This document shows positions 8,221 to 29,395 of a DNA stretch of 64,000 bases, piece by piece. The stretch lies in the NCBI GenBank assembly GCA_032718475.1, contig JAUCBJ010008976.1, forward strand, positions 62,001 through 126,000, in the 5' to 3' direction. Every line of letters starts with the position of its first letter. The stretch's first letter is position 1. A model generated the notes under the pieces. It was given only the letters and a program-made list of their open reading frames with translations. It ran no database searches and was not told the origin of the DNA. The DNA comes from Nemertoderma westbladi. Lineage: Eukaryota; Animalia; Xenacoelomorpha. A program made the position numbers and the translations under genes.

Positions 8221-8506
8221 AATTTGATCATTTTTACCTTATTTATTAAAAAAAACCGTTTTTACTGTCATAATGTTAACCTAATAATTTAATATAATTT
8301 GACTAATAATATCTATAATTTTTTATTCTCGAATTTCGAAAAACTCGAATTTTGATTGTTTCTCACCGCTATATTAGATAATATATATACCCCCACACTT
8401 GCGTGAGTGTTCATGTTATATGCGGCAGGTATACCGAGGCTTTGATAACACTCATAAGAACTACATAACGGCTTACTAGGCATTTTCAGGTTAGCCTCCC
8501 ATAAAC

Positions 8507-8925
8507 AACAGCCGACATTAGTCAACCAAAAGCCGACACGAGTCAAACGACAGCCGACGTTAGTCATCCGACAGCCGACATTATTCAACCAACAGCTGAC
8601 ACGAGTCAACCGACAGCCGACACGAGTCAAACGACAGCCGACGTTAGACATCCGACAGCCGACATTTGTCAACCGACAGCCAACACGAGTAAAACGACAG
8701 CCGACGTTAGACATCCGACAGCCGACATTTGTCAACCGACATCTGACGCGAGTCAACCGACAGCTGACACGAGTTAACCGACAGCCGACATTGGTCAACC
8801 GACAGCCGACATTGGTCAACCGACAGCCGACATTAGTCAACTGACAGCCGACATTGGACAATCGACAACCGACATTGGACAATCGACAGTCGGTATTAGA
8901 CAACTGACAGCTGATATTAATCGGC
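8507..8925. repeat. 21-bp minisatellite (same family as 5279-5471), ~19 copies
   Basis: Tandem GTCAACCGACAGCCGACA.. units; the 7-aa-repeat ORF 8313-8987 is a by-product. Confidence 0.95.
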
Positions 8926-9080
8926 TGTCGAAAATTAAAAAAACCCATGTTTTTTGGAAGACTTGATGGAAGCCTGAGGAAACCCATGTTTTTTGGAAAT
9001 TTTTCATTAAAAAAGTGGGGAAACTTTATTTAATTAAGAAACGTGCTTGAGGAGAAATTTCTTAAAGCTTATGAAATTAC

Positions 9081-9518
9081 AGTAGTAGGGTCTTGGTCCT
9101 CTCGGCGACACTTAGACCCCACTGACATGGATGTCATATGACACCCAATTATCACCCTATGGGTGTCATTGGGTGTCATTGGCGCCAGACTGTCTGGGTG
9201 ACACCTCCCAATTAGGCTAATTAGACCCTAATTGAAAGGTGTCATCAATTAATTACTACAATTAAACCCTAACAGGTGTCATATGACTCCTAATTAGGGT
9301 TTAATTGATTATCCTAATTAATCAGACTGATTAGCGCCCTGACACACAATGGGCATCAGTGTTGTCTAAGTGTCGCCGAGAGGAGCAAGAGGGTGTCATA
9401 AGTGACACCGCAGCTCTTTTATTCTTTAATACTTATTTATTTATATTTAATTTTAATTAATTATTTGCATTTTATTTTATTCGTATTTAATTCTAAATTA
9501 ATTATTCATTTGTACTTT
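9081..9518 (+). repeat. Left terminal inverted repeat of the Polinton
   Basis: Reverse complement of ~27286-27736. Further TIR-homologous sequence resumes at ~13020-13152, matching ~27173-27283, beyond the LINE insertion. Confidence 0.95.
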
Positions 9519-9883
9519 ATGGGTATACAGCTCCCTTACTGGTAACTAATTACTCCAGACAGCTTTATCGTTGACCTTTGACCTTTGACCCCCCAATTAG
9601 CTTTAACCAAGCAACAGCATATTAATGATAGATGTATCCAAGCGCCCCTGCCCCCACCCCGTGACAGCTCTGATTACTAATTACTCTTACATATATCCAA
9701 CCGCCTGCAGTTCCATAGTCTGCCGCTAGAGGGCGTATTATCTGAAAATTAACATCTTCTCTAACTTTGCTATTTTCAATTTAACTATTTATTTATATTT
9801 AATTTTAATTAATTAATTGTACTTTATTTTACTTTATTTATTCATTTGTAGTTTATTTTAAATTAATTAATTGTATATATTAC

Positions 9884-9887
<4 letters not shown>

Positions 9888-9957
<70 letters not shown>

Positions 9958-12900
9958 GGATTTACACATAGTGTAGGGGTCGCCCCCTGAAATAAAAACG
10001 TAATTCATGGAGACTAACAAAAATATACAATTTAGACTGAGTAGCACTATTAAAATAAAGTCAATCCAGTATTCGTTATCCGAGAAAATTAAAATATATT
10101 TATGTTTAATCCTGTTTGTTCATATGTTGTGCAATGTACGTACTGAAAGTGGTAAATAAAAAATATATGTATACAGCAAGTGATAAAAATATATATACAG
10201 CAAGTGATAAAAATATATATACAGCAAGTGATAAAAATATATATACAGCAAGTGATAAAAATATATATACAGCAACAGCAGGTATATATACAGCAAGTGA
10301 TAAAATTATAAATACAGCAACAGAGCAAGTGATGAAAATATATATACATCAACAGAAGGTACAGCAGGTGATAAAAATATAAATATTTTAGCAAGTAATA
10401 AAATCAAGTGAGTAAGTTGTTAAGGTTCAATATTCGGAGGTTGCAGTTCATCTGTGTACAGTCACAGTTAATTTTCCAACTGCAAGTGATGTCAACATCG
10501 TAATGTTGGTGAAAGTGGGCCCAGAACAGATTCAATAGGCGCGCCTTTAAACCAACGTGATTAAAATACTCTGTCTGAAGGGGAAGCTGATTTGCCAATT
10601 GTGGTGCGCGAAACCAGAAATTTTGCTTTGATATGCACTTTAGGGGGTGTGTGAGATCAAACGAGGGTCGGTTAGCGCTACGAGTGTTTCTTCTGAGGTT
10701 TGTTTGCTTCATCTTTAGATGTGGCGACCAGTCAATGTCGTATTTATTATTTATTATCTTTGACAAGGTTAGTTGGTCGGATAATTGTAAGTATAATGAG
10801 ATCGGTAGAATGTTTAATATTATGAGTCTCTCCTTGTAGGTGTGATCGTCATTACCAATAATCCAGATTGTTGCTCTCCGCTGGATGGACTCGAGTTTGT
10901 GTGCGTCCGTCTTGTTGGCAAACCAACAAGGCGACCCATAGGTTAAGATTGGCAATACCATGGATTTATAGAGGTTTAGCTTGGATTGTACTGGTAGGCG
11001 AAAAGAACTGCTTCTTCGGATCAGGTATAATGTTCTATTTGCTTTACTGCATTTGTCCTTAATGTGGGCGGTCCATGATAAATTTGATGTTATGGTTATT
11101 CCTAAATCCTTCTCTGTATCGACTCGAGATATAGTCCTTGAGTACAATGACCGAGCTTCTATGTCGCCTTTGAAGACTATTTGCTTGCATTTCGGTTCAT
11201 TAAAATCTAGTCCAGCCTCGAGACCCCATGTCACAAGTCGGTCAATATCTAATTGTGTGTTGATGATGGAATCGACATGTGATACTGATAATAATTTGCA
11301 ATCGTCTGCGAGGAGAAATGGTATGCTGACATGACAAACTTCTGGGAGATCATTGCTCTCAACAACAAAGAATAGTGGTCCCAATAGGGACCCCTGAGCC
11401 ATGCCACTGTCGACAGATCGGGGAGTTGACTTCGCGTTTCCGACTTTTACTGACTGTGTTCTTCCTGCTAGGTAGCTCCGGAGGATATACCAGAGATTTC
11501 CGCGGACCCCCATTATCCATAATTTTCGCAGAACGGATTCGTGGCTGACAGAGTCGAACGCTTTCTGGAAATCTAAGTATATTACTTCTACTGTCAATTG
11601 GCCATTATCCGTACCCTTGTAGACATTGTCTAGAAATGTAAGTAATTGTGTGATCGTTGATCTTGACTTCCTAAATCCATGTTGTGCGTCGTGTAACCTA
11701 CTACGTACTTGTTCGTAGATGGGGATAAAGATGCAACGCTCAAATACTTTTCCAGGAATCGCTAAGAGAGATATTGGCCGGTATAAGATTACCTTGATTC
11801 TACTACCTTTTTTATGTTGAGGATTTATTAGTGCATGCTTCCATGCTACGGGGAAGTGGTTTTTTTTTTTCAGCCTCCCGAATAGGAATGACATTGAGGG
11901 TGCTAGTACTTTTGCGAGGGATTTAAATAATGAAGGTGGAATATTGTCTGGTCCACGAGATTTCGTAGCATCTAGAGACGTAAGTATATTCTCCACTGTG
12001 TCAACTGACACGTCGTAGTCGTGTGTCGTGTTCAAGCTTTCAGAGTTTGTGTCGTTAAGTGGTGGTTTTATATCGCTAGTAGGTATTCGCGGGGATTTAA
12101 AAACGGAATGGAAGAACTCGTTAAATAGATTAGCCTGATCCTCATGAGTGGATGCCGTACGATTCTCGTATTGTACTACTGGTGGCAGTGAACAAGACCT
12201 CCGTAGGCTTTTGAAATATTTGAAGAGATGTTTCATTGAACGGGTGTCCGCTAGCTGCATCTCGTACTTTGTTTGGTCAGCTAAAATATCATTTTCAACT
12301 TCTTCCTGTAACCTTTCCATCTTAACCTGAAGGTTTAATGTTGGCGATATCTTTGAAGCAATTTTACGCTGGAGAGTGTGTAATTTATTTAACTTATGTG
12401 AGGTTTTTTGTGTCACCCATGGTGGTTGCGAGGCACGATGCGCTGTTCGTTTAGGAACACAGTTGTCGATAACATTATTCAGCCATTGATACCATTTATT
12501 AACTAGATCCTCACAATCGGTCATATTGTACGATTTTTCGTCAAATGGCCGAGATTCACAAATCTGGGTCGCCTTCAGTGTATCTATTTTACAAAAACTA
12601 TAATGCAACAAGGGATTGGACTGGATCGGCTGCCGTGTTTGCTTTGCAGCATTACATTGTGAGTTTAAAATAACCAGGACAGGGTCATGGTCTGACTTGA
12701 TTTCAACTGCCTGTAATTGTCTAGATAGGTTGTAGTCAATCTCAATGTTGAGAATTGTATTGTCTGTTAATGATATGAAAACGTCAAGCGTATTAGCTCC
12801 CCGTGTAGGAAAATTTATGTGTTGTTTAAAGTTGTGTTTGTCAATAGCGTATAAAATGTCCTTCTCATAGTTATCTGTAGAAAAGTGAGACTCCCAATCT

Positions 12901-12970
12901 ACAGAAGGCAGATTGATATCCCCACATATGATCACGTCGTCAACGTGATCCTTAAATGTTATTATGTAGT
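9888..12970 (-). mobile_element. 5'-truncated CR1/L2-group LINE inserted in the Polinton left subterminal region
   Basis: (TAA)23 tail at 9888-9956, 3' stem-loop AGGGG-TCGC-CCCCT (~9975-9988), a 24-bp tandem repeat in the 3' UTR (~10170-10380) and the EN-RT ORF. Confidence 0.9.
10404..12935 (-). CDS. LINE ORF2: C-terminal half of APE endonuclease plus reverse transcriptase
   Basis: Motifs IICGDIN, PTRGANTLD, SDHDPV, KSRGPDNIP, YRPISLL, QHGFRK, YLDFQKAFD, QGSLLGP, LADD and KDLGI. The 5' end is truncated. Confidence 0.92.
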   Translation of the reverse strand: MIICGDINLPSVDWESHFSTDNYEKDILYAIDKHNFKQHINFPTRGANTLDVFISLTDNTILNIEIDYNLSRQLQAVEIKSDHDPVLVILNSQCNAAKQTRQPIQSNPLLHYSFCKIDTLKATQICESRPFDEKSYNMTDCEDLVNKWYQWLNNVIDNCVPKRTAHRASQPPWVTQKTSHKLNKLHTLQRKIASKISPTLNLQVKMERLQEEVENDILADQTKYEMQLADTRSMKHLFKYFKSLRRSCSLPPVVQYENRTASTHEDQANLFNEFFHSVFKSPRIPTSDIKPPLNDTNSESLNTTHDYDVSVDTVENILTSLDATKSRGPDNIPPSLFKSLAKVLAPSMSFLFGRLKKKNHFPVAWKHALINPQHKKGSRIKVILYRPISLLAIPGKVFERCIFIPIYEQVRSRLHDAQHGFRKSRSTITQLLTFLDNVYKGTDNGQLTVEVIYLDFQKAFDSVSHESVLRKLWIMGVRGNLWYILRSYLAGRTQSVKVGNAKSTPRSVDSGMAQGSLLGPLFFVVESNDLPEVCHVSIPFLLADDCKLLSVSHVDSIINTQLDIDRLVTWGLEAGLDFNEPKCKQIVFKGDIEARSLYSRTISRVDTEKDLGITITSNLSWTAHIKDKCSKANRTLYLIRRSSSFRLPVQSKLNLYKSMVLPILTYGSPCWFANKTDAHKLESIQRRATIWIIGNDDHTYKERLIILNILPISLYLQLSDQLTLSKIINNKYDIDWSPHLKMKQTNLRRNTRSANRPSFDLTHPLKCISKQNFWFRAPQLANQLPLQTEYFNHVGLKARLLNLFWAHFHQHYDVDITCSWKINCDCTQMNCNLRILNLNNLLT

Positions 12971-13287
12971 CTAGTCTACATTAAATCTAAGTCTAAGTCT
13001 ACATTAGTCTTAGTCAGTTTTACTTTATACATTGATTTTTATTTTAAATTAATTAATTGTATATATTACTTTTACTTTATACATTGATTTTTAATTTTAG
13101 ATTAATTAGTTTTTATATTACCAATGAGATCACTATGACATAATGTCTATTTTTAGCTCTATGGTTTATAGATCCCTTATCGTTAACTTTATAATCTTTC
13201 CTCTCGCGGCCCCTTTGTCTTCGTTATTCAATGGCGCCACTCTGTCTACCATTGAATAACATTGGGCAATCATTATCTCGCCTAATG

Positions 13288-13413
13288 TGACGTCATCAAA
13301 GCTGCTCTCTGATTGGTTTAATTATACAGTCTTTTCTCTCTCCTGTTCCCTGATTGGCTAACCCATTCTAGCCCCCTCTATAATAGCCCCCGTTCACCAC
13401 ATTCCCAATCATT
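13288..13413 (+). promoter_or_regulatory. Putative Pol II promoter of ORF569
   Basis: CRE TGACGTCA (13288), two ATTGG boxes (~13312, ~13353), TATAATA (13379) and a TCATT initiator 30 bp downstream (13409); the ATG is at 13505. Confidence 0.55.
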
Positions 13414-13504
13414 GTCTCTTTGTTTTCCTGAAAAGTTTTAATTATTTTCGTAAAAGTATTTATTTATTTTTATTTCCTAAACGAGTTACCGGTACACAAT
13501 CACG

Positions 13505-15214
13505 ATGGCACATTCAGAAATCAGCTATTCAAGCAACGATCTGGTTTGCAACGAAAATCAGTTTATGCTACAAGACAACTCGTTTGGTCTATATTTCGAT
13601 TCGGCGAACAAACTCTTCCCGTTAACGATAAATACAACCTTAAACCAACCCATCCCGATTCCGGCAAACTACGCGCACTTTATTTTCCGTGCCTGCTACG
13701 AACTTCACGATGGACAATATCAAACCCTCGACGATAATAAACTTCATTCCTCCAACCACGGTTTCAAACTTTTAAAAAGGGACAACAAAATCACGTTCAA
13801 TCTAACTACTTCGCCCGAGACGTTTACGATTCCAACTAGTGTCGTCGATTTTATTCGAGAAAACATCAACCAAGATGTGGCAAATCGTCTACTGGGTTTA
13901 ACCACTCTCGTAACCTCCTTCTTCTCCGATGATCGCTTATTTGATTTTCATAGTATCGCAAACTCGATTCTTCTTCTCATCTGGAACTCGTCGACTCCGA
14001 CCGAGGAAGAGGAGACTCGTTTCTTTAAACTTTTCGACAAGGATGTTCTCGCTTTCGGCGAGAAATTGAATGAGCTCACATGCCTTTACGCCAATAAAGT
14101 CTCCTATTACTTTGGATTCAATTATAGAGTTGGCACCCATGGAAGTATTAACCCACTGAATCCACTCGAGTTAATAAAGCTGGAAGACACTGTAAACAGT
14201 TCATGGATCACATTTTCCGTCGCCTGCGCCATTTTATTTCAACAATATGTAAACATCTGTCGCCCTTTTATTAATCCTACTACTCACCTTGTCCTAAAAC
14301 CGGGCAATTGGGTTGCTTTTGACTATTGCACTTTTGGGTTTGTTACAAATATTCGGAATGAGCGCAATTTAGCGATCACCAATGGCTACAGGGTTGACGA
14401 TGGAAAGGCTATTGTTTCTTCTAGGGGCATGATTCTTCTTACACCAACCGAGGTCGGCGAATTGAAATGGTTCGATTCAACCATCGAGGATAGTGAATGT
14501 GTCTGCTACGATGAACTTAACGTCTACAAAGACAACATTTCCGAGCGAATATCGATACAAAGTTGTATCAGTGATTCAGAAATTGATTTACAGATAACCG
14601 AGAGAAAATTTAACGAATCCTTTACTATAGCTAACACGATTCAAGCGCGCGAGGCTCTAATAAGATTCAAGGCTATGGCTATACAATTTGCTTTCAAACC
14701 AAAGCAGATTACGATCCCCAATCACCAACGCTATCTCATAAATAGCAGTATCGCAGCCTTTATCTATAAGTTCAAATCCGAAAAATATGTTGGTATCTGG
14801 CCCATTTTAATGAAAGACGAAGAGAATACCACTTTTCAGTTCACCAACGGTCTCAATATTAGGGGCAGCGATTTTCTCGCGATAAATATAACCAACCCAC
14901 CCAACTCTCACTACTATCTCAATCCTTACATTCATATCGAGAACAAACCAACAGAAATTATATTCACCAATACGAAAAATACCAACACCATTACCCTATC
15001 CAACGACTTTACCATCGCGCGCCTTTTCGAATTACTAAAACGTTCTCTCAGAGAAGGCATCTTTCTCCCGCAGCAAACACACCTTAATCTATTTCACCCC
15101 CCAAGAAAAGGTTATCTCAACAAACTATTAAAGAGAAAATTATCGCAACCATTAATAGTATCGGACCCTAAAAGGGTTAAACCAGTTATTCTCGGAGGCC
15201 AGCAACCCTATTAA
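13505..15214 (+). CDS. Polinton-encoded 569-aa protein, putative multi-PC4-like (ssDNA-binding) domain protein with a C-terminal NLS-like stretch
   Basis: Intact ATG-to-stop ORF with AATAAA after the stop (~15233). Two segments align by eye to the PC4/Sub1 core. The C-terminus is basic (KRKLS..PKRVK). Confidence 0.7.
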   Translation: MAHSEISYSSNDLVCNENQFMLQDNSFGLYFDSANKLFPLTINTTLNQPIPIPANYAHFIFRACYELHDGQYQTLDDNKLHSSNHGFKLLKRDNKITFNLTTSPETFTIPTSVVDFIRENINQDVANRLLGLTTLVTSFFSDDRLFDFHSIANSILLLIWNSSTPTEEEETRFFKLFDKDVLAFGEKLNELTCLYANKVSYYFGFNYRVGTHGSINPLNPLELIKLEDTVNSSWITFSVACAILFQQYVNICRPFINPTTHLVLKPGNWVAFDYCTFGFVTNIRNERNLAITNGYRVDDGKAIVSSRGMILLTPTEVGELKWFDSTIEDSECVCYDELNVYKDNISERISIQSCISDSEIDLQITERKFNESFTIANTIQAREALIRFKAMAIQFAFKPKQITIPNHQRYLINSSIAAFIYKFKSEKYVGIWPILMKDEENTTFQFTNGLNIRGSDFLAINITNPPNSHYYLNPYIHIENKPTEIIFTNTKNTNTITLSNDFTIARLFELLKRSLREGIFLPQQTHLNLFHPPRKGYLNKLLKRKLSQPLIVSDPKRVKPVILGGQQPY

Positions 15215-17627
15215 TATAAACAGTCTCTATTTAATAAAAACTGTTCTCACTATATCTTTTGTTATTGTTGATGTTCTTATATTATTTATTTTCAATGTTG
15301 TTGGTAAATTATTTATCTGTTGTTGTTATATTATTTAATATTGATGTTGTCGGTAAATTATTTATTCTTGTTTCCCCATAATGTTTAAAAAATATAAGAT
15401 GTTTAACCACTTATTTTTCATTTTTCTCTACTAGTTAATCTATACTATGAGAGCGAGCCATGAAATAAGTGAGTCTCAGCATACCATTAATGACCCCTAC
15501 TGCTTCTTCGTAATCAATTTGAATGTTAACCCCTAAATAAACAGCCAATCCCTATGAATTCTTTACAAACTCGATATGCAAGTTGTTTATCAGAGCTGAA
15601 TTTATTTAAAATATATTATTTAGCGTTTTTGTGATTAATGCTATAAATTATATTCACCAAAATGAAAATATCCACCCTATTACTCTTTCCATCAAGCGAT
15701 GCTTTGTATGTATTGATGGCGAGCAAAGTTTTCAGGGCGACCACCTCTAGGCTGTAAGTATACTGTTCTGCCCTATCATAGACACTCTGTCTTTTAGATG
15801 CTTCACTGTTAATATTAAGCCGTTAGCCATGGCGCCGCTGATAAGCCGCGAGGATATTCAAAGGCTTTGGTTTGATTGTTCGTACTATGGATAGTTCAAT
15901 GAAATCATGAAAGGGAGGGCCGCATGGGTTGATAGTGATAGCCCCTCATCCTTATTTTCCCGAGAAATTCTTAAAGGCGACTATGAATAGAACAATGAAA
16001 CATTAAAGGGAGGACCGCATATGTTGGGAATGATAGCCCTTCAACTGCCTTTTACCCAGATTTGTGTAAGATCGAGGGAGGATGTAGAGGAAAATATACT
16101 CATAGCTTTAATGCCCCATTTGATTAAAGTAGAGCAAATTTAGCTTTCACCTAAGGGTTATCACTCCATGCGACTGCAAAATTTAAAATTCTATCTATGA
16201 TGTATTCGCTATATTTCGTTTGCTGACAATATTTCATCGCGAAATTAAAAGCAGCTGCTATTACTATTATTATAATATATTATCTAAAGTAGTGAGACTG
16301 AGTTGGAACAGATAGGATAATTGCACTTGTTATGTTTTAGATTAGTAGCTTTAATCATAATACTACCGGGCTATAAAATGTTGTACAAACACCGGGGAGG
16401 GTCATAATGACCCTGGTCGGGGATAGGGAATCGAATCTGTGAGAATCTGTATATCCTATTTTGTGTTTACTTTTTATTTTTTCCGTGAAGCGACGGCAAA
16501 AATTTAAAATTTCTGAAAATTTCGCGGATAGAGAATTATAAATATATTTGGTGAGCATAGTGCTACGCGAAGGCTCCATGGCAGATGTATTTTAGCTATG
16601 GACTCGTATATCCATTCTACTCTACTATAGCCAGACTGTCTTTGAGGTGCCCCATTAGCCTTGGCGCCCCTAAATTTGCATGAGGGCCGGCCATGGTCTT
16701 ATATGTAGTTCTCTCTCTAGCAATATAGCCCATGTTCACAATGTTGCGCCGGAGGGGGCTCTCTCATCCACCCGATATAATACATAGCGACACACCGCAC
16801 ACAAAGCCTTTGTCGATCCCAGCAAGTTAGCCTCCTGCTGTGTGATCTTTTATATCCAAATAATCTCTGATGGTTGCGCATAAAAATTTTGCTTACTATT
16901 ACATAATTATATTAGTATTAGGACTATTTATCCTTAATAATTATATTAGAATTATAAATGTATTTACCCCCACATTATTTATTACTATTAGGTCTATTTA
17001 TTCAAGAAATTATATGTTTTTATAATATACTTTGGAAAATTAGTCGACTAAGTCATAATTTTTAAAACTTTAAATACGGGTTGAGTTATTTTATAAAGTT
17101 AAGAAGAATGAACCAATAGAGGGAGCCTGAAGTCTAATCTCTTGGTCTTTACTCACATTAACTCCCAAGGTTGCATACTATCACTATAGCCGGCGGGAGA
17201 GTCAAAGCTAGAGTGTATGCTAGAGTTAACCAAGAGCTAGGAAAAAGAATAATGCTCTTCTAGCGTCCAAACTCACGATCCCTCCAATTAGAGAACTAAG
17301 CAAATGATCAGCTTGAAGGTCTTAGACCCTTAATCGGAGGCATCGAGCAGCCAATGAGAGAGCAGATGCGAGTACAGTGGTAAAGCCCATCCATAGTGAG
17401 ATAGCGTTGCACTAGCTCTCAAGGATAGTTATACTCACCATTCAAATATCCCTCGCAAACCAGATTCCCCCAACATCTAAAGTATTCCACTTCAATGTAA
17501 AATATATAATGCAATATAACTCGAATATTTCTGTTTTTATAATATAAATAATAATTGTAGCATAAATTTATAATTTAATATAAATATAATATGAAAATTC
17601 AATATTATCAAATGACATTGCTATATA

Positions 17628-17934
17628 ATGCATAGCCATGAAAGTTGTTTGGTTTGTAATAAAGAAATGAGACAAGACAATTTATTTCGTCATATGGAAA
17701 CACATAGAAAGGAAAACTAATGGCTCCGTTAGCAAAAAATTTAAAAAATCCGAAGATATTTTTAGTGAATATGAAAAGAAAAAGAGAGATGATCGTGATA
17801 TTTTAAATATAAAACAGCCAATGGAAAATAAATTTCATAAAGTTGTGAATATTTTGAAAGGGATACAAAAACAGTTACCCCTAGAAAATGAGGAAAATTT
17901 GAGTGAGAAAGATGGAGAAGAAGAGGTAAAATAG
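17628..17934 (+). pseudogene. Small C2H2 zinc-finger protein, frameshifted
   Basis: 17628-17720 translates to MHSHESCLVCNKEMRQDNLFRHMETHRKEN. The +1 frame continues open to TAG at 17932 and encodes a charged, acidic tail. Confidence 0.65.
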
Positions 17935-17939
17935 GAAAA

Positions 17940-20040
17940 ACATATGCTCACAGGCTCAATCCCTACTCGTATCCCGTTTTATGGGAATTATTAAAAGTAA
18001 ACACAAAATAGGATAAACAGATGGTCACGGGTTCAATCCCTACTCGCGACCAATATAAAACCAACACAAAATAAGTTAAACATAGAATAACTAGAGTACC
18101 TAAACTAAACACAAAATAGGATAAACAGATGGTCACAGGTTCGATCCCTAGTCGTATCCCGTTTTATGGAAAATAAACAGGAGGTCACGGGTTCAATCCC
18201 TACTCGCGTCCATTATAAAACCAACCCAAAATAAGTTAAACCAGGGTTCGAGTCCTACTTAAAATTAATTATAATTATAATTTATTATATAATTATAAAA
18301 ATAATTATAAAAAGTAGGTAACACGGATGCTCACGGATTCAAACCCTACTCAGGGAAAAATAAAAACCAACACAAAATAAATAATATAGTAAACTTTCAT
18401 GTATACCATAGTAAATAAACTAATTTAATAATAAAGTTTGTAAAATAGATAATGATTCAGGGAATTCACCGGCTGGACACATGGAAACGATTTTATTACT
18501 ATGAAATACACTGAAATATGTACTCACATTAACTCCCAAGGTTGCATACTATAACTATAGCCGGGAGATTCAAAGCTAGAGTGTATGCTAGAGTTATCCA
18601 AGAGCTAGGAAAAAGAATAATGCTCTTCTAGGGTCCAAACTCACATCCCTCCAATTAGAGAACTAAGCAAATGATCAGCTTGAAGGTCTTAGACCCTTAA
18701 TCGGATGAATCGAGCAGCCAATGAGAGAGCAGATGCGAGTACAGTGGTAAAGCCCATCCATAGTGAGATAGCGTTGCACTAGCTCTCAAGGATAGTTATA
18801 CTCACCGTTCAAATATCCCTCGCAAACCAGATTCCCCCCCAACATCTAAAGTAATCCACTTCAATGTAAAATATATAATGCAATATAACTCGAATATTTC
18901 TGTTTTTTATAATATAAATAATAATTGTAGCATAAATTTATAATTTAACATAAATATAATATGAAAATTCACTTTAACTGTTTTTTATAATATAAATAAT
19001 AATTGTAACATAAATTTATAATTTAACACAAATATAATGTGAAAATTCACTTTAACATAGAGTAACTAAACTAAACATAAAATAGGATAAACAGATGGTC
19101 ATACTGTAGGTTCAATCCCTACTCGTGTCCGTTTTATGAAAAAAATATAAAAAGTAAACATAGAATAACTAGAGTACCTAAACTAAACACAAAATAGGAA
19201 AAACAGAAGGTCACGGGCTCAATCCCTACTCGTATCCCGTTTTATGGAAAATAAACAGGAGGTCATAGGTTCAATCCCTACTCGCGACCATTATAAATCC
19301 AACACGAAATAAGTTAAACCAGGGTTCGAATCCTAATCATGAAAATATAAAAAGTAAACATAGAATAACTAGAGTAACTAAACTAAACACAAAATAGGAT
19401 AAACAGATTGTTACGGGTTCAATCCCTACTCGCGACCAATATAAAACCAACACAAAATAAGTTAAACATAGAATAACTAGAGTACCTAAACTAAACATAA
19501 AATAGGATAAACAGGTGGTCACATGTTCGACCCCTTCTCGTATCCCGTTTTATAGAAAAATATAAAAAGTAAACACAAAATAGGATAAACAGATGGTCAC
19601 GGGTTCAATCCCTACTCGCGACCAATATAAAACCAACACAAAATAAGTTAAACATAGAATAACTAGAGTACCTAAACTAAACATAAAATAGGAAAAACAG
19701 AAGGTCACGGGCTCAATCCCTACTCGTATCCCGTTTTATGGAAAATAAACAGGAGGTCATAGGTTCAATCCCTACTCGCGACCATTATAAATCCAACACG
19801 AAATAAGTTAAACCAGGGTTTGAATCCTAATCATGAAAATATAAAAAGTAAACATAGAATAACTAGAGTAACTAAACTAAACATAAATTAGGAAAAACAG
19901 AAGGTCACGGGTTCAATCCCTACTCGCGTCCATTATAAATCCAACACAAAATAGGAAAAACCAGGGTTCGAGTCCTACTAATGCAATTATAAAAAGTAGG
20001 TAACACGGATGGTCACGGATTCAAACCCTACTCACGGAAA
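17940..20040 (+). repeat. Array of ~19 tRNA T-arm/B-box-like motifs (GGTCACGGGTTCAATCCCTACTCG)
   Basis: Two clusters at 17940-18350 and 19080-20040. Units end either ...TCGCGACCA or ...CCCGTTTT. Confidence 0.8.
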
Positions 20041-20101
20041 AATAAAAACCAACACAAAATAAATAATATAGTAAACTTTCATGTATACCATAGTAAATAA
20101 A

Positions 20102-20617
20102 CTAATTTAATAATAAAGTTTGTAAAATAGATAATGATTCAGGGAATTCACCGGCTGGACACATGGAAACGATTTTATTACTATGAAATACACTGAAATA
20201 TGCACATCCTATATATATTCTAATCGCACAAAATAATTCGGGGGTATAGCTAATAAATATTGCTTTATTATTAATTGTATGATGTCCACATTTTTTCATT
20301 AATAATTTAAAATTAACACTTGGAAAAATAATAGTTCGTGTTTCGGTATTAAGTTTCAAATTTTGTAATTGCATCCCGATAGTCTGTTTTAAATAAAGCA
20401 ATTCACTAGCTAAATTATTGCAAAGGCCTACAATTGTTACTGCGCCGCTGGGAAATAGCATTATAGTTGAATCGTCACCTTTGTAGATAAACATGTTTGG
20501 TTTTAAGCAACTTTGACCTGTAATTTGCTGTGAAATTTTCTCTAGTTCAAATTTGGCAATGTTTTTTCCGGTAAACTGTTTATTGGTTATTTCTATTTTG
20601 TTGTTCAATTTCTTATT
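20102..20617 (-). CDS. Divergent TATA-binding protein (TBP)-like protein, no ATG; probably a spliced exon
   Basis: Two TBP half-repeats: ITNKQFTG..FELEKI..TIMLFPSGAVTIVG and LKLNT..ISYTPELFCAI..FSVFHSNKIV. A TTTTTCTAG acceptor lies immediately upstream. Confidence 0.8.
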   Translation of the reverse strand, partial: NKKLNNKIEITNKQFTGKNIAKFELEKISQQITGQSCLKPNMFIYKGDDSTIMLFPSGAVTIVGLCNNLASELLYLKQTIGMQLQNLKLNTETRTIIFPSVNFKLLMKKCGHHTINNKAIFISYTPELFCAIRIYIGCAYFSVFHSNKIVSMCPAGEFPESLSILQTLLLN

Positions 20618-20631
20618 CTAGAAAAATTAAA

Positions 20632-23600
20632 TTAAATTCTAGTAGGGGGGATTACTACTCGTTTCGCCGGTCTAACAAGCTTAGTGCTATAGTGTCCGTA
20701 TGGTTTGCTGCTATATTTACTACTCCAATATGATTTCGTATCCCAGAGCGTTAGTGCCTTCTTATAGACATGACCAGTAAAAATTTGATGCTTTCTAGAA
20801 GTGAAGGTAGAGTTATAGCGGAAGAGCATTGCCTCGTTTTCAAAACAGTCTGCATAATCCTCGTGTGTTAGTTGCTTAGCGACAACCGATCTAGATACAC
20901 CTTTGGCGGTTTTCTTGATTGGGGCATCGTAGGATTGAAAACTGTAGACCTTTGGTTTAAGGAAAACCCACTGTTTATACTGCAAACCGCAGCTCTCATC
21001 TTTTACGAAGCCGAGAGCCGCTTTGTGTTTAATGGTATAGAGTGGATGTGTTGTACTGTAGTTGGAAGTATCTAGGAAACCACCCTCAAACATTGCCCGT
21101 AGAAAGGTTAGCTGTGGTGTATTAGTTACGCTTAGCATTAGAGAATCCGTGTCACCGGCTAGACAGCGAATCTGGCAATCCAGTTTTTGTTCTAGAGGCT
21201 TCAGTTTGTTGTAAAATAGGTCGTACATCTGTAGCTTAGATAGATCTAGTATAGTGCAACCGATGAACACGCCCTGATTTAGGCAAACAGCCTCTTTAGT
21301 GAAAGTATGACCACTCAAGTTGGGGGTAAAGACAACAAACGATTCGTGGTTGGGCTTGGCTAAGAGCAAATCGCATTGTTCGTCGCTATTGCATAACCTG
21401 AAAGAAACGCGGTCTCTAACCTTTTGGAGGCATTTCCCATACAAGGCATTGTTCATCAACTTATAAAATAGGACCTCGAATGGGTTATTTGCCGACTGTC
21501 TTTTATTCGTATTAAAACTAATGTAGTCCTTGAAAATATATTTTTGTGAGAAAGAGTAGACCCTATGTACTTGTGTAAGTTTAAGACCGAGCTTCAAATA
21601 GAGCTGAAGTAGCTTAATATGGATACCGTATTCAACCTTATTAAACTGATGTAGTAGTAGCTTAGTACAGGTATCGTTGTATGGTCTACAGGTAGCCGTA
21701 TCGGTGAGATTGTAATGCTCCCAAAGATCTTCCATGTATTCGCTAAGAAAGGATTTAGGGACTGACATCTTCTCCGCTCCTAGAGGCAGATCGGCGGTCA
21801 AATCATGAATTTCTTTCGGGTAATGTAGATCAACTATGCAATAATAACCAGTGTCCCCACTCGCGTCTACTGTAGCTAGGTCTATGGGGGTAGTTACGAG
21901 TTTAATATTAGCGTAGGGAAGTTTCTGGCTCAGGGCGCAGCCGTAAAGGTTATTCGCATCGATGGGAATTAGATATTTCTCGGGGAGACTGGAGTCGTAG
22001 TCGGGTTTATCGGGAATATTTGCGTCTACAGAATGTGTATTCAAGAAAACTAGACCACCCCTAATATTTGTTTCAAAGTCCGAGTAGATGGAAGCGTCTG
22101 ATAGTAATTGAATTTCTGATTGCGTGAATTTCAGCGCCGCGTCGTAAGTTAATCCAGGGGCAGTGAAGTACATTACGGGCTCGAGTCCATAATTAGTAAG
22201 ACAGAGGGATCGGAACTGCTCGAAAGTATCAGCCAATAGGGTAACGTCTAGAACCAAATAGCCAATCATATAGTCGAAGATTGTTGCGCAGTTTAATTCA
22301 TCCCAAGTAGTAAGCGCGCGCTGATAGTTTTCTGCGCTACATTGTTCCAATTTGAGATCATTATAGAAGCTTTCTATTGGGGGGAGTGTAGTTTCGTGTA
22401 GGTTTGAAATATTTTGAATGTAGGAATATGGGAATACGCCCTTGTTTTTTATTGTGTTATCGCTAATGTTGGGATAGAGTCGGGTCATTTGAGCTAGTGT
22501 ATGGGGTATGGCTGTTGCTAGGTTACTGTTATTTTTAGTGAGATAACTACTAAGATTATCTAGGCTGGCAGTCATAAACTGATAGGAATCTAGAAAATTA
22601 ATGGAGATACTTTCTTTAGCGTTGGCTGTTGGTGTACTCGGATCGATTGGAAAGCTAACTTTAAGGTGAATATAAGTTTCGGTGTTTTTTGGTATTACAG
22701 TCATTTTCCAGTGTGTTCTAGAACTATCGGTCATTCCTTCTTTTAGTAGTAAATGCATATCGAATTTCCTCAAGTTATGAAATATAATATAAAAATTATT
22801 CCGTTTTAGGGAAAGTTTCCTGTTGCAGCTGACGCAAGCAGCCCCTCGATACTCCCCGCTATAATGATCGTGATCGCGGACTTTGGTGCTGAGATTGTCA
22901 TTGAGGTTTAAATTATGAGAATCGGGGGTTAAATTACAGTTGCAGACGTAGCATTGTGTAGCGTTATTAAAGTCAGTTTGTTGGCTAGTAGTGAGTTGCA
23001 TGGGGGCGTGCGTGTTTGTACTAGAAATGGACCAATCGTATAACTCCCTACAATGACTTTCCATAGCGGTTAGAAAGTCGCGCATTACGTGGTTACTGCC
23101 ATCGTCGCGGAAAATTTGAACATCTGTTTTAGGAGGGTTAATTAATTTCTGATTTGGTACTGTATAAAAGGCTGCCGCGCTAGCTATATGTTTCTGTGGG
23201 AGTTTAATATTGTTTGTAGGTTCTAGAATAGTTTCAATGTCGGCGTATATACAGAAAGGTGGGGATAGAGTCTTATCGTACCTATCAAATTTAACCAAGA
23301 GATTTTCGGGCATATACTCGAGCTGGCGTTTACCCGTATAGCAACGCTCTCGATGTTCTTCCAATGATTTGTCAGTGTAAAAGGCTCTGAGACAGCGTTC
23401 GCAGTGCGTCTTGTTGCCGGTAGAAGTAGCTTTTGTATTTATTAATCTATCTATGTTAGTAATAGCTACGTAGTGGGCGGGGTTTTTGCTTGTGGCTTCG
23501 ATAAATAATAAGTTTAGTACAGTTTTACCGGAACAGTGCGCGCTATCTGGTTGACTTAGAATGGAGAGTTCTTCCGTATTACTCCAATAAAGAAGGTTTA

Positions 23601-24687
23601 TGCAGTATATAGGGTTGGCTTTCAGAAACTGGGGAATACCAGTTACTCTGTCCACCGGAAAACTTAAATTCGAAAAATCAAACATGTTTAGGAAAGGAGT
23701 AAACGTTGAAATTCTACTAATATTATTTTGTTTTCTATCAATTTTCTTATAATTTGCGGCGGCTAATACTGCGTATTTAAAGCATTCCCCCAGCGGGCAG
23801 TCTACGCTTACGGTACATTTTTTATTTAATAATAATTTAGAATTATTGAAGCCTTGACCCTTTAAATAGGGGTTGCGTTGGGAACGCGCAATCTCAATAG
23901 TTATTCGCTCGATGGCTATTATGCGCCAACCCGAGCCGAGGCAGAGAAACACGCTTAACAGTTGATCGATACGATTGACGGCGCTAGAAAACCAGTTATT
24001 AAAGTCGCTATTATTCAGAATTTGATTATTGTTACCGCTAGATTTAAAACAGAATGATTCAATTTGAAATCCCTCGCTGGTTTCACGCTCCATTACGATG
24101 TTGATTGTAAGCCAGACTCTTAAAAAAGTTCCCATGGCACTACGTAAATGGCTACTAACGTGTTCTTGAATGTGTGGAAAATTTTCGTTTAATGTTAATT
24201 CTGCGTCGAGTCTTGTTTCTGCGAGGTCGTTGTTATAGGTAAACAGTCGTCCGTGTGCGCTTCCGTTGGAGGGTGGTTGAAATGGATTGTTTGGGGAAAT
24301 AGAATCTCGCGAAGTTGAAGGTTCATTATTGGAGCCGCCGCCGCCGACTTGTTCTGGAGTAGAGTTGATGGGGGATGAGTGGGAGGTAGTCGGAGTTTTG
24401 CGTTTCCGCGAAAAAAGTCGAGTGTAGCATTCATGCTCAGTAAAGGATGATAGGGTGAGCGAATCCCCGCAGCGGCAATCGGCTGGCTCGTTTACGTAAC
24501 TAAATCCTGTTCCCCCCTGAGGACACGAAACAAGATGGCCAACCAGTGTCTTCTTTTCCGAGGACCAAGTCGGGCAACAGTCGCATCTATATTGCGCGAA
24601 ATGAATTTTAATGTGGCGAGATAAATGATCACTCCGCATCTCTTTGTCGCAGATGGGGCAGCTAACTTTATTGGTAGACATAGGCAT
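20632..24687 (-). CDS. Protein-primed family B DNA polymerase (pPolB) with N-terminal C2H2 fingers and an inserted endonuclease VII-like domain
   Basis: ExoI YADIET, ExoII HNLRKFD, ExoIII Y...D; polymerase motifs DANNLYG, KLMNNALYGK, GDTDS, KPKVY and AKGV; EndoVII-like CYVC..RDHDHYSGEYRGAACVSCN. Uninterrupted 1351 aa. Confidence 0.97.
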   Translation of the reverse strand: MPMSTNKVSCPICDKEMRSDHLSRHIKIHFAQYRCDCCPTWSSEKKTLVGHLVSCPQGGTGFSYVNEPADCRCGDSLTLSSFTEHECYTRLFSRKRKTPTTSHSSPINSTPEQVGGGGSNNEPSTSRDSISPNNPFQPPSNGSAHGRLFTYNNDLAETRLDAELTLNENFPHIQEHVSSHLRSAMGTFLRVWLTINIVMERETSEGFQIESFCFKSSGNNNQILNNSDFNNWFSSAVNRIDQLLSVFLCLGSGWRIIAIERITIEIARSQRNPYLKGQGFNNSKLLLNKKCTVSVDCPLGECFKYAVLAAANYKKIDRKQNNISRISTFTPFLNMFDFSNLSFPVDRVTGIPQFLKANPIYCINLLYWSNTEELSILSQPDSAHCSGKTVLNLLFIEATSKNPAHYVAITNIDRLINTKATSTGNKTHCERCLRAFYTDKSLEEHRERCYTGKRQLEYMPENLLVKFDRYDKTLSPPFCIYADIETILEPTNNIKLPQKHIASAAAFYTVPNQKLINPPKTDVQIFRDDGSNHVMRDFLTAMESHCRELYDWSISSTNTHAPMQLTTSQQTDFNNATQCYVCNCNLTPDSHNLNLNDNLSTKVRDHDHYSGEYRGAACVSCNRKLSLKRNNFYIIFHNLRKFDMHLLLKEGMTDSSRTHWKMTVIPKNTETYIHLKVSFPIDPSTPTANAKESISINFLDSYQFMTASLDNLSSYLTKNNSNLATAIPHTLAQMTRLYPNISDNTIKNKGVFPYSYIQNISNLHETTLPPIESFYNDLKLEQCSAENYQRALTTWDELNCATIFDYMIGYLVLDVTLLADTFEQFRSLCLTNYGLEPVMYFTAPGLTYDAALKFTQSEIQLLSDASIYSDFETNIRGGLVFLNTHSVDANIPDKPDYDSSLPEKYLIPIDANNLYGCALSQKLPYANIKLVTTPIDLATVDASGDTGYYCIVDLHYPKEIHDLTADLPLGAEKMSVPKSFLSEYMEDLWEHYNLTDTATCRPYNDTCTKLLLHQFNKVEYGIHIKLLQLYLKLGLKLTQVHRVYSFSQKYIFKDYISFNTNKRQSANNPFEVLFYKLMNNALYGKCLQKVRDRVSFRLCNSDEQCDLLLAKPNHESFVVFTPNLSGHTFTKEAVCLNQGVFIGCTILDLSKLQMYDLFYNKLKPLEQKLDCQIRCLAGDTDSLMLSVTNTPQLTFLRAMFEGGFLDTSNYSTTHPLYTIKHKAALGFVKDESCGLQYKQWVFLKPKVYSFQSYDAPIKKTAKGVSRSVVAKQLTHEDYADCFENEAMLFRYNSTFTSRKHQIFTGHVYKKALTLWDTKSYWSSKYSSKPYGHYSTKLVRPAKRVVIPPTRI

Positions 24688-25189
24688 CTTGAATCTAGAA
24701 AAATAAGTTGATTATTCGTAAAAAAATAAAAAATACTGTATACTTGCTAAAAATAAAGTAAAACAGTAGGTATTAATCGGTTACTAGGCAACAATACTGT
24801 GTTTGTACAGTTAGGCCTATTGCTATATTGTAGCAATCAGTCAGTGAAACATAAAGCAGACAGTCGGCAGTGACTAGTGTGGTAGTGTTAGTGTACCAGC
24901 GGTCAGATAGTGGCGATAACCAAGACACAATAGCGATGGCAGTTATTATTCATGGAAAGAGGGTCTATAAACAGCAGTCAGTCAGTGCAGTAGTGCTAGT
25001 GAAAAGTCTGCCAGAAGTCAGACGTACCGGTAGCGTTAACCAATAGAAATCAACGATAGGCTTAGCTAATCGCTGTGTGAGAACTCAGTTAGTCAGTATG
25101 ATATATAGTGAAAACTGCAGTAATCATTGTTGATCAGTAGGATCTAGGCTAACTCGAATGATGCGGTACCGGTAGTTGGGTAGACAAGC

Positions 25190-26415
25190 AGATAGACAGA
25201 TGTAGGCCTATTGATCGAATGCTTCGATCACGGTTTAGGGTATCGCTTCCACCGCAGTCTGACAGTAATTAATAATGAGCCTACTGCAATACTGTTGTAT
25301 CGGTAGACATTAAAGGTGAATTGTTTGCTAGCGGCGTCGATGGAGATGGTGGAAGGCAGATTTTACTTACGGTATTAGTAAATATTCACGGAAAGAAGAA
25401 GTTTGGAAGTTCGGTGGCGATGAGGAAGTTGGTTGACGTGGACGACGAGAGAGTTTATTAATCGATAGAACGGAATGGTATCGGAAATTAGAAATATTAG
25501 AATATTACGCGACGGATACGCAGAAAGTTTGTTGTCGACGATGAGCGATAGCGCGGCGAAATGATACTAGAAAAATAAGATGATTATTTGTAAAAAGATA
25601 AAAAATACTGTAAGCAAATAGGCGGATGTAGGCCTATTGATCGAATGCTTCGATCATGGTTTAGGCTATCGGTACCACCACAGTCTGACAGTAATTAATA
25701 ATGAGCTTACTGCAATACTGTTGTATCGGTAGATAATAAATGTAAATTGTTTGCTACCGGCATCGATAGTACAGTCAGATGGTGGAAGGGAAGGCAGATT
25801 TTACTTACGGTATTAGTAAATATTCACGGAAAGATGAAGTTCAGAAGTTCGTGAGGAAGTTGGTTGACGTGGACGACGAGAGAGTTTATTTACCGATAGA
25901 ACGGAATGGTACCGATATCGGAAATTAGAAATATTGGAATATTACGCGGCGGATACGCGGAAAGTTTGTTGTCGACGATGAGTGTTAACGCGGCGAAATG
26001 ACACTAGAAAAATAAGTTTATTATTTGTAAAAAGATAAAAAATATTGTAAGCAGATAGGCGGATGTAAGCCTATTGATCGAATGCTTCGATCACGGTTTA
26101 GGCTATCGGTATCACCGCAGTCTGACAGTAATTAATAATGAGCCTACTGCAATACTGTTGTACCGGTAGACATTAAAGGTAAATTGTTTGCTAGCGGCGT
26201 CGATGGAGATGGTGGAAGGCAGATTTTACTTACGGTATTAGTAAATATTCACGGAAAGAAGAAGTTTGGAAGTTCGGTGGCGATGAGGAAGTTGGTTGAC
26301 GTGGACGACGAGAGAGTTTATTTACCGATAGAACGGAATGGTATCGGAAGAATATTACGCGGCGGATACGCGGAAAGTTTGTTATCGACGATGAGTGTTA
26401 ACGAGGCGAAATGAC
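25190..26415 (-). repeat. Three tandem ~430-bp units upstream of pPolB carrying splice donors, acceptors and a hairpin
   Basis: Units start near 25201, 25627 and 26064, each with a TGATCGAA-TGC-TTCGATCA palindrome. Minus-strand GTAAGT donors lie at 25365, 25803 and 26228, and TTTTTCTAG acceptors at 25567 and 26004. Confidence 0.85.
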
Positions 26416-26538
26416 AATAATACAACTCTACAAGTGGGTTGTTGACTGATGATAACAAATAAATATTCTTAATAAATAATATTAAAGTCGAAAACAAAAT
26501 AATGGTAAATGATGTTAATCGTAACTTGCATTTGAAAT

Positions 26539-26655
26539 AATGATGTAATATATTGGTGGGGACGTATTAAATAGCAATTCGGTTAGTAGGGGAGGCCCTT
26601 GTCTCTTAAATGAGCCAATCAGAACGCAGCAGCAGAAATGAAACCCGCTGATTGG
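26539..26655 (-). promoter_or_regulatory. Putative leftward Pol II promoter for the pPolB/TBP-like transcription unit
   Basis: CCAAT boxes (26615, 26651), minus-strand TATTTAATA (26565-26573) and a TCATT initiator ~30 bp downstream (26539-26543). Confidence 0.45.
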
Positions 26656-27285
26656 CTGTTCGCGCAAAAGCGGTAACCAGGGCAACTTCTCGTGTTGATT
26701 CTATATTAGAAAACCCCCGTAGACATCTTGACTAATTATGTTGAGTTGGCTGTATAACAGAAGCAGGTTTGGTGCAAAGGAAAGGGATTAGTAGAGAGGA
26801 ATGCGTGATTAGTGGCGCTTCATTGTTATGATAGCGGCTGCCTGGATATAGGAAAGGGACAAAGCGACGCCGGCTATAGTGGGAACAAAGGAGGGCCGCT
26901 TGAGCATTAGCCTTGGGCGATATACGGATTTGGTATAGTCAAGGCCGCATTGGGATTATTAGTGAGACATCGAGGGGGGGGGGGGGGGGGGGGGCTGCTA
27001 ACAGACGGGACTGCTCATTTATATTTGCCTTGGGGGTATACGTGTAGATTCACTGCCTGTTGTATCTAGTTAATGAATAATGAGGACAGAGGAGGGGCCC
27101 CCGCCGATGAACGTAGTTGATAGTTGCCGGGAATGTGGTGAACGGGGGATGCAATAGGTAATTATAAAGTTAAATATAGACATTATGTCATAGTGATCTC
27201 ATTGGTAATATAAAAACTACTTAATCTCTAAAAATAGAAATCAATGTATAAAGTAAAAGTTTATATAATTAATTAATTTAAAACA

Positions 27286-27736
27286 AAGTACAAATGAATA
27301 ATTAATTTAAAATTAAATACGAATAAATAAAGTAAAATAAAGTACAATTAATTAATTAAAATTAAATATAAATAAATAAGTATTAAAGAATAAAAGAGCT
27401 GCGGTGTCACTTATGACACCCTCTTGCTCCTCTCGGCGACACTTAGACAACACTGATGCCCATTGTGTGTCAGGGCGCTAATCAGTCTGATTAATTAGGA
27501 TAATCAATTAAACCCTAATTAGGAGTCATATGACACCTGTTAGGGTTTAATTGTAGTAATTAATTGATGACACCTTTCAATTAGGGTCTAATTAGCCTAA
27601 TTGGGAGGTGTCACCCAGACAGTCTGGCGCCAATGACACCCAATGACACCCATAGGGTGATAATTGGGTGTCATATGACATCCAATGGGTGTCAGTGGGG
27701 TCTAAGTGTCGCCGAGAGGACCAAGACCCTACTACT
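27286..27736 (-). repeat. Right terminal inverted repeat of the Polinton
   Basis: Reverse complement of 9081-9518. Confidence 0.95.
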
Positions 27737-29395
27737 AATTACCTTTCATATAAGCAAATATTGCAAAAAACTGTTAAGAAATATTATTTTTCGTGCAAAA
27801 AATGTCATTCTGAGATAATCGCATTCAAAGTTCAAACCTTCCCGCGCAAAACTACCTGTTTTGGTTATTCAGCACTTTAGATCTTTAGAGGACATTGTAT
27901 TGACCTGTACATGTAGTATAGTATGGGTGTATTATTATGTTGTAATGTCCCAGTGCAGTGGTGTGACTTTACATCAAGCCGTCATGGTTACAAACAATAG
28001 TTGGTATTATTATTAATTGCCTTACAGCCTGATAGGCCTACTGCATTACCAACCGGTAGCTAATAATAACCAGTAGCTATAAACTATCTTCCTCCTATCT
28101 TCCCCCTAGGAACTATTCGTCATTTCTTTACAATGGAGTATGAAAAATGATGTCGCTAATTCTAGAACATAAAAAATATATATCCCAAAACAAATAATAA
28201 ATGTGATAGTTAAAGTGTTCTTATTGTACGAAATAAGATTTTTGGAGTAATTTACAGTTACTTAATTTCTTAAATACTTAAATTTCTTAAATTTTATTAC
28301 AAGTGTTGAAAAAGCATCGAAGTAGAAAACGTTTGCAAGTGGGCCTACTGTAATTAGAGCAAAATCCATTCAAACCTTCAAAGTTATTATAAATTTAATG
28401 CGTGCACAGTGTATAGTAGGCCTACACCAAAAAATAAGTCAATATCCACTATTAGTTTATGTAGTTAAGCGGCTCTCTAGTTACCTAGTAAATATTAGAG
28501 AACACTAAATTATTTAACATTGAGTTAAGGCAGCATCAGGTGTTGAAGCCTACTAAAATTTGACTATGGAAGTAAAATGTTACAGTTCAAAACGCTGTTT
28601 CTTCTTTTATTAAAAAATTAAGCAACAAAAAAAGTACAAATGCAAATAAAATACAAAAAAAGAGGGCGTAAGGACCCGCAACAGTTTTATACGTTTATGT
28701 ATCAGAAAACATTTACTTGTATTCGTTATAGAGAACATGGACTCGTATTCATTTATTTAGTTAATTTGATCTCCATTTCTATTTAATACAAATAAATAAA
28801 GATTATTATTTAGCAATACAGTAGAATAAAATTACGAATTACATGGTAAAAATCTTAGAACATTTATTCAATATTGTCCCTTTATTAACATCGCTGGCGC
28901 TTGGTAAATAAAATAATGCCTTGAATATAGTGAAAAACGTTCACCTTTTTTCCCATGTAAAAAATAATTATTTTACATATTTCACTTTATCTAAAAAGAA
29001 GTATTATTTTTTTGTTTATATATTTGGCTCGTCCTAGTCGGTTCTCCACCTGAATCTTATTATCATAATTATTATCAGCCTAACCTAATGCTGCTGCAAT
29101 TTTGTTATATTGACCATTGCTGAATACTGATTACCTTTGTTTTTTGTTTTTCTATTTTTCTGACTTTATCTACGCTGTTCAAACCGGTACCGAATTAACG
29201 TTGTACATTAATTAATATTCATAGAGTATAAATGCAATCATGCAGTTCAATTAAAGGCACGAGCCTAGCAGTAGTAGTTTAGTTGTGGGGGGGGGGGGGG
29301 GGGGGGGCAACACATTCGCAAAATGTAATTGTTAATTGCGGGAACCTTCTAGTTAGTGGTGAATGGTGGGCCTATCATATTCATCAATTCGCTTA

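Follow-up and report, generated by a model that had tools for sequence, protein, structure and literature searches.

A strongly diverged TBP-like gene behind the DNA polymerase gene of a Polinton-type element and its probable descent from a mini-TBP-bearing Polinton lineage

Autonomous Polintons/Mavericks carry genes for pPolB (protein-primed DNA polymerase B), an integrase, an ATPase, a protease and capsid genes; to our knowledge, it is not established how Polintons switch on genes inside the host genome. Most TBP-encoding NCLDV and poxviruses have an RNA polymerase of their own, and the herpesvirus viral TBP reads a private late-gene TATT box. In yeast TBP, we take F99, F116, F190 and F207 to be the four DNA-intercalating phenylalanines and N69/N159 to be the central asparagine pair. 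TBPs encoded by viruses have been described in several families of large DNA viruses (PMC11410667). According to Ravarani 2020 (PMC7221094), two glutamates of TBP are tied to binding of TFIIB and Brf, and a basic patch of the N-lobe to the host regulators TFIIA, TAF1, Brf, Mot1 and NC2; poxvirus VITF-3 is described as binding AT-rich DNA with low sequence specificity (PMC12917281). The legend to Fig. 5 of Starrett et al. 2021 (PMC8502044) contains a TBP label for MELD viruses with adintovirus-like PolB; this legend was the sole mention of a TBP gene in such elements in the literature covered, namely openly accessible article text.

The window, i.e., the whole stretch of 64,000 nucleotides that was analysed, contains an element of 18.7 kb (9081-27736) with AGTAGTAG ends, TIRs and a 6-bp target-site duplication. 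Its parts are as follows:

9075..9080, no strand: left target-site duplication AATTAC; same 6 bases at 27737-27742
9081..9518, plus strand: left TIR, begins AGTAGTAG; 96% over 452 nt to 27285-27736
9890..12980, minus strand: 5'-truncated non-LTR retrotransposon with (AAT)n tail; RVT_1 2.7e-20, Exo_endo_phos_2 3e-07
13038-13162: further piece of the left TIR; 89% to the right TIR
13261..13385, plus strand: promoter-like stretch with three CCAAT boxes, TGACGTCA site and TATAATA (motif scan)
13505..15214, plus strand: intact 569-aa ORF (ORF569), basic NLS-like C-terminus by eye
17150..18971, no strand: tandem duplication; 96% between 17150-17601 and 18521-18971
17927..20050, plus strand: array of repeats immediately 3' of the TBP-like gene; 12 tRNA B-box-like motifs, 9 ATAAAC-purine sites
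20102..20617, minus strand: TBP-like frame, 171 codons, both lobes, without ATG before codon 42
20618..20631, minus strand: splice-acceptor-like motif, the AG of which belongs to the stop bounding the TBP-like frame
20632..24687, minus strand: protein-primed DNA polymerase B, intact, 1351 aa; DNA_pol_B_2 2e-18, catalytic motifs present
24695..26419, minus strand: predicted spliced leader region, three ~430-nt repeats (motif scan)
26573..26655, minus strand: promoter-like stretch with CCAAT boxes and TATTTAATA (motif scan)
27164..27736, minus strand: right TIR
27737..27742, no strand: right target-site duplication AATTAC

Features of autonomous Polintons/Mavericks present here are the TIRs, AG...CT ends, the 6-bp target-site duplication and an intact pPolB. 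The left TIR appears to have been split by insertion of the retrotransposon (endonuclease remnant and reverse transcriptase, 10404-12980) at the left end of this copy. Queries for integrase and ATPase from L046, a TBP-bearing Polinton locus described below, matched 43 and 20 loci, respectively, but had no significant match in the window; when 813 locus frames were compared by tblastn, pPolB was the sole match in the element (capsid and protease queries not labelled singly). The element is without detectable integrase, ATPase or capsid gene, and, the integrase being undetected, this activity would have to be supplied in trans. The sole other non-retrotransposon gene besides pPolB and the TBP-like frame is ORF569, for which no usable match was found in Pfam, PHROGs, PDB sequences, ESM Atlas or 3189 locus frames; its assignment by eye as PC4-like was rejected (no match in Pfam segments or in a 3-sequence Polinton-loci profile, no internal repeats). 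By eye, one 19-nt GC-rich motif was found both at the promoter-like stretch on the left (13385-13405, +) and where the right TIR has its inner edge (ca. 27130-27147, −).

The tandem duplication holds a second copy of the last 32 TBP-like codons (18309-18523, 98.6%), and its junction letters recur as a loose end in run X3. In the adjoining array, the B-box-like (tRNA T-loop) motif stands mostly 17 nt after an ATAAAC-purine site; it gave 12 exact matches against 0.3 expected, all of them copies of one unit, and the rest of the window has none. Searches of 17927-20050 for tRNAs and Rfam families gave no match. The array might possibly represent tRNA-derived Pol III or boundary elements next to the TBP-like gene; the count weighs little in this respect, since a single unit was amplified. 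The flanks of the element (1-9000 and 28000-64000) consist of other repeats, with no host gene seen: non-LTR reverse transcriptases (186-1994, 5980-7392 and 38470-39816), Bel/Pao-like LTR genes (44160-50567 and 57769-60021; presumably of this class, as assigned by us from DUF5641 and DUF1759) and satellites of 21, 30 and 63 nt.

The preliminary description had pointed to a frame of ~170 aa lying 14 bp after the pPolB stop with TBP motifs, three of the four intercalating phenylalanines and a stirrup reading YTPE in place of YEPE, and to two TATA-like boxes. These observations are reproduced: the frame starts 14 nt past the stop (20632-20634), has 171 open codons and contains all the quoted motifs, YTPE included, in its translation; F55, F129 and F144 correspond to yeast F116, F190 and F207 (numbering taken from a 1rm1 alignment and chained through profile alignments to the window protein); the boxes lie at 13379 (+) and 26573 (−), with further TATA-like boxes upstream of pPolB at 27267, 27023 and 25107. 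The frame is a stop-to-stop one, with the earliest ATG at codon 42 (position 20494).

Direct searches with the window protein gave 0 related sequences among 56 candidates (word search), 0 matches among 1.84 billion representatives (phmmer) and 0 matches among PDB sequences (direct phmmer); homology was reached only via L046, itself found through pPolB. The preliminary description had staked the TBP assignment on profile or structure searches. Profile A4, built from 31 rows of the mini-TBP family with the window protein left out (rows matching Pfam TBP at E 0.001 or better: 31/31), matched the frame with 42.7 bits (E 3.9e-12 among 1372 window frames), the best of 2000 shuffles of the frame giving 9.9 bits; the match spans residues 10-150 and each part of it scores above shuffles. 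Alignment of the frame with the mini-TBP family by hhalign gave 94%, and profile A3, in which the window row is included, matched PDB TBPs at 1.3e-24. In ESM Atlas, 30/30 matches of the window protein were TBP (score 0.95), at a recognition value of 1784, which is under the strong range. In the Pfam check proposed earlier, PF00352 matched the N half alone at E 0.002, and the 18.4 bits stay below the cut-off of 22.9. Two single-sequence AlphaFold models, calculated with no alignment input, had pLDDT 29.7 (window protein) and 31.0 and were useless, so that the TBP fold of the window protein is taken from sequence. Profile, hhalign, Atlas and element context agree with the earlier claim of a TBP homologue inside a Polinton-type element, and the 20102-20617 frame is almost certainly such a homologue, strongly diverged.

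Relatives were sought through pPolB: 107 loci were collected and 3189 frames from them searched, and a TBP-like match was obtained in one of these frames, that of L046 (E 2e-5), the protein of which is a clear TBP (yeast TBP 5.6e-12, Pfam 56 bits). L046 led in turn to 94 relatives (P0121-P0214) among 388 candidates, i.e., metagenomic mini-TBPs; 0/6 locus records examined from a PF00352 search matched. DNA context is at hand for two members, L046 and L109 (a 3.8-kb fragment without pPolB), both with an integrase-bearing Polinton gene order: PLA2-like, small ORF, TBP, ATPase-like, small ORF, zinc finger, integrase (rve). L108 (NCLDV, canonical TBP) and L110 (canonical eukaryote-type TBP) served as canonical outgroups. 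On the L108 contig the TBP gene adjoins a major capsid gene; the L109 Polinton fragment and the L110 TBP are found in bacterial-MAG records and are probably mis-binned contigs.

A FastTree of 112 pPolB rows was drawn from the 30/120 fetched proteins that were eligible and from locus frames with an alignment over 650 residues; one clade of 18 rows, with 100% support, holds both the window and L046. Outside this clade, a TBP-like frame was found in 0/24 loci of at least 12 kb; in the remaining four clade loci the sequence reaches just 1-5 kb past pPolB, too short for TBP presence to be read from them. The window protein scored a median of 18.9 bits against 77 family rows, 10.3 against the NCLDV TBP and 2.9 against the eukaryote-type TBP, so that, with these two canonical TBPs compared, 71/77 and 77/77 family rows, respectively, outscore them. 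In a TBP tree built by a quick method from the 75/94 relatives of at least 140 aa, the window protein sits on a terminal branch of length 5.39 and is placed without support. A one-off capture, named earlier as the finding that would count against the idea, is not what the 94-member family and the pPolB clade shared with L046 indicate; the TBP-like gene was probably inherited from a mini-TBP-bearing Polinton lineage.

The relatives have a candidate promoter box of their own. ATAAAC is present within 80 nt upstream of 12/20 genes of L046 and L109 (shuffle mean 0.96), a count in which 3/12 box regions are only the stop codon of the preceding gene and orthologous genes are counted twice; in 500 shuffles no 6-mer containing C or G exceeded 9 genes, and in TBP-less Polintons ATAAAC stands upstream of 14/277 ORFs (24 loci; ORFs mechanically called, spurious ones included). 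A purine follows ATAAAC in 13/13 sites, 4 of which overlap the stop of the preceding gene. In L046, region 10978-18144 contains 11 HATAAACR sites, each on the strand that encodes the gene block; the whole locus has 15 against 6.4 expected, and its 4.9-kb pPolB frame none. HATAAACR is thus a candidate private promoter box in L046. In the window, ATAAAC-purine is absent upstream of pPolB, ORF569 and the TBP-like frame, 9 sites being found in the 3' array, and the promoter-like stretches carry CCAAT boxes and TATA-like words in its place.

F116, F190 and F207 are kept in the mini-TBP family, as are the two TFIIB glutamates (in 30 and 31 of 31 rows); position F99 is mostly Lys, and invariant Asn, Gln and Arg stand at V71, V102 and V122. 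The window protein retains 3/4 intercalating Phe, K39 being at the F99 position; of the central Asn pair, N12 (= N69) is kept and T91 stands at the N159 position. The invariant polar residues N8, Q37 and R56 of the family are lost. A Pro and a Gly of the C-lobe are absent and only 7/15 family-invariant columns kept, which would equally fit decay. The joint lack of the box, the capsid genes and the polar residues fits a change or a loss of role.

The explanation that we consider best, and that may prove right or wrong with about equal probability, is a mini-TBP from the Polinton clade, alternatively spliced with pPolB and acting as a DNA-bending factor for the AT-rich promoters or ends of the element. 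A single leftward transcript would use one of two acceptors, that preceding pPolB or that preceding the TBP-like frame, and the start codon would be provided by an exon further upstream, by a trans-spliced leader or by a near-cognate codon. The protein of intact relatives would read the private ATAAAC-purine box and recruit host TFIIB and Pol II; the capsid-less offshoot would have lost the box together with the matching polar residues, and the remaining protein would be a low-specificity AT-rich minor-groove binder serving the element itself. The low-specificity AT-rich binding of VITF-3 shows that a TBP fold can work in this way. For such a self-directed DNA-binding role of the window protein the chances appear evenly divided.

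Alternatively, the gene may be a vestige: it would have served late genes when the ancestor still had a capsid, be carried along behind pPolB today, and owe the silent surplus described below to that past. The very long branch, the loss of 8/15 family-invariant columns (7/15 kept), the lack of an ATG before codon 42, the absence of the box from the promoters of the element and the lack of detected virion genes speak for it. Copies of the element in four runs from three studies differ within the frame at 13 places, 8 silent and 5 replacement (expected silent share 0.20-0.28; P 0.001-0.012; rough omega 0.15-0.25), figures that have to be read with 11/13 differences lying within codons 130-162, two in one codon, several coming from the same few diverged contigs, and contigs dropping rare variants. 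No stop and no indel inside the frame is listed among the run differences, and no ATG occurs in the first 41 codons in any run. For pPolB, 17 silent and 12 replacement differences were counted (29 in-frame among 40 listed of 238); the silent surplus of the TBP-like frame is similar. This surplus among near-identical copies argues against a vestige, as do the 171 codons open in AT-rich DNA (0/5000 shuffles of the stretch remain open) and the retained acceptor motif. Contigs in X2 and X4 bridge most of pPolB (20624-23854), keeping exactly its first 278 codons; these internally deleted derivatives lose most of pPolB yet join beside the TBP-like gene and retain its flank, which also argues against a vestige. 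We regard a vestige as unlikely. Main contigs in runs X1 and X2 have a depth of ~1500-2100 and diverged pieces mostly 20-60 (depth is not copy number), which suggests many near-identical copies of the element. In run X5, guessed to be RNA, pPolB alone is touched, at depth 2-4, which has no bearing on expression.

On the preferred explanation, the missing start codon makes it likely that the TBP-like protein is produced by splicing. All four copies of the 9-mer TTTTTCTAG in the 64 kb belong to this element and to its minus strand: two lie in the leader repeats, one precedes the pPolB ATG by 8 nt, and the fourth is at the TBP-like frame. Motif scanning located leader donors ACC|GTAAGT at 26233, 25808 and 25370 and acceptors at 26004, 25567 and 24695; the stretch 25186-26419 (−) consists of three ~430-nt repeats, each with a perfect donor and two with a strong acceptor. 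A multiplied non-coding leader exon upstream of pPolB is likely from these motifs. Residues 1-41 match the profile (11/1000 shuffles score as high) and are therefore probably translated. None of the leader donors brings an in-frame ATG. Candidate sources of a start are the in-phase donor-like site 24666, within the first pPolB codons, a 59-nt fusion intron (20676) and the near-cognate codons 4 or 8, which are in good context; trans-spliced SL leaders can also supply start codons (PMC9851317). Expression of the frame by some form of splicing is on balance the probable case.

The 59-nt intron (donor-like 20676, phase 0) offers a further possibility, namely that the frame is the last exon of pPolB and appends a TBP-fold domain for binding of origin or TIRs. 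The in-phase donor-like site 59 nt before the acceptor and the position of the gene 14 nt behind pPolB, unlike in L046 and L109, would suit such a fusion. Its donor (GTTAGA) is weak beside the GTAAGT of the leader, however, other in-phase donor-like sites exist (24666 and four more), and a TBP-like part was found in 0/120 fetched pPolB homologues; a pPolB exon is distinctly unlikely.

The preliminary description further supposed that the element may redirect or compete with host basal transcription; the protein would then act as a decoy or dominant-negative TBP. The equivalents of three of the four Phe, N69, E188, S118, S209 and K211 are kept and the protein is net basic (18 K+R vs 10 D+E), which speaks for such a decoy. 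Of the two TFIIB glutamates, however, one is retained (E127 = E188), T125 standing at E186, and helix 2 (residues 66-84; ungapped mapping, by eye) has one basic residue, a Lys. Viral TBPs so altered are, as argued in Ravarani 2020 (PMC7221094), unlikely to bind host TFIIB or regulators, and a genome-resident element would gain little from blocking the Pol II that it needs. With the first TFIIB glutamate and the basic patch largely lost, competition of the window protein with host TBP through partners appears unlikely; this part of the earlier proposal is not supported, and we rate the decoy as highly improbable. Recent independent capture of a host TBP or TRF2 followed by fast drift, for which the unplaced position in the tree and the gene position different from L046/L109 may be quoted, is extremely improbable given the lower scores against the two canonical TBPs (eukaryote-type 2.9 and NCLDV 10.3 bits vs family median 18.9), the short N-terminus, shortened N-stirrup and K-P at the F99 position common to the family, and the location of the window pPolB within the TBP-bearing clade.

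Extending the preferred explanation to the whole lineage, we put forward tentatively, and with more doubt than belief, a Polinton clade in which a single protein acts as promoter switch: a bare mini-TBP, its DNA face rewired, would read a private CATAAAC-purine box upstream of the viral genes and employ host TFIIB and Pol II, with no viral TFIIB or polymerase, and an offshoot would have moved the gene behind pPolB, adopted alternative splicing and re-purposed the protein under selection. A clade-specific mini-TBP with a candidate private box makes a directly testable promoter system; if true, the viral-TBP strategy of herpesviruses and NCLDV extends to elements of 15-25 kb. The window gene would then be a natural experiment, the same fold being observed after loss of capsid genes, box and matching residues; should it be no more than a vestige, this copy would be an ordinary one, with the finding at the family level unaffected.

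Compared with known systems, the element resembles MELD viruses in combining middle size, pPolB and a TBP-like gene, a likeness known from the legend label in PMC8502044; it differs in the 94-protein family, the pPolB clade link, the ATG-less frame and the capsid-less carrier. The novelty of a Polinton TBP was overstated earlier: Starrett 2021 already labels such a gene. No analysis of Polinton TBPs was found in the literature covered; what the present work adds is the link to a pPolB clade, the box count and the ATG-less and capsid-less variant. NCLDV TBPs are, as here, virus-encoded TBP folds with altered partner surfaces, and most TBP-encoding NCLDV/poxviruses encode a TFIIB-like partner (PMC7221094), whereas neither such a partner nor an RNA polymerase gene was seen in the element or in 19 kb of L046. 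ORF24/BcRF1 of beta/gammaherpesviruses, a viral TBP mimic using host Pol II (PMC7498053), is a model for the mini-TBP family; whereas the Polinton protein is a bare core, ORF24 binds Pol II through a separate domain at its N-terminus and works with five viral partners. From autonomous Polintons this copy differs in that no integrase, ATPase or capsid gene was detected, functions that it would therefore have to obtain in trans. With canonical TBP (PF00352; yeast 1rm1, 1ngm) the window protein shares the saddle sequence pattern and the equivalents of F116, F190, F207, N69 and E188; the residues at F99, N159, E186, P191 and G210 differ, as does most of the basic patch in helix 2. From the mini-TBP family it differs in identity (16-27% in alignment), in the lack of N8, Q37, R56, the first stirrup Glu and an ATG, in gene position (behind pPolB vs before the ATPase) and in the absence of the ATAAAC box from the window promoters; it agrees with this family in its length (~170 aa) and two lobes, in having hardly any extension at the N-terminus, and in K-P at the F99 position, the three retained Phe and the pPolB clade shared with L046.
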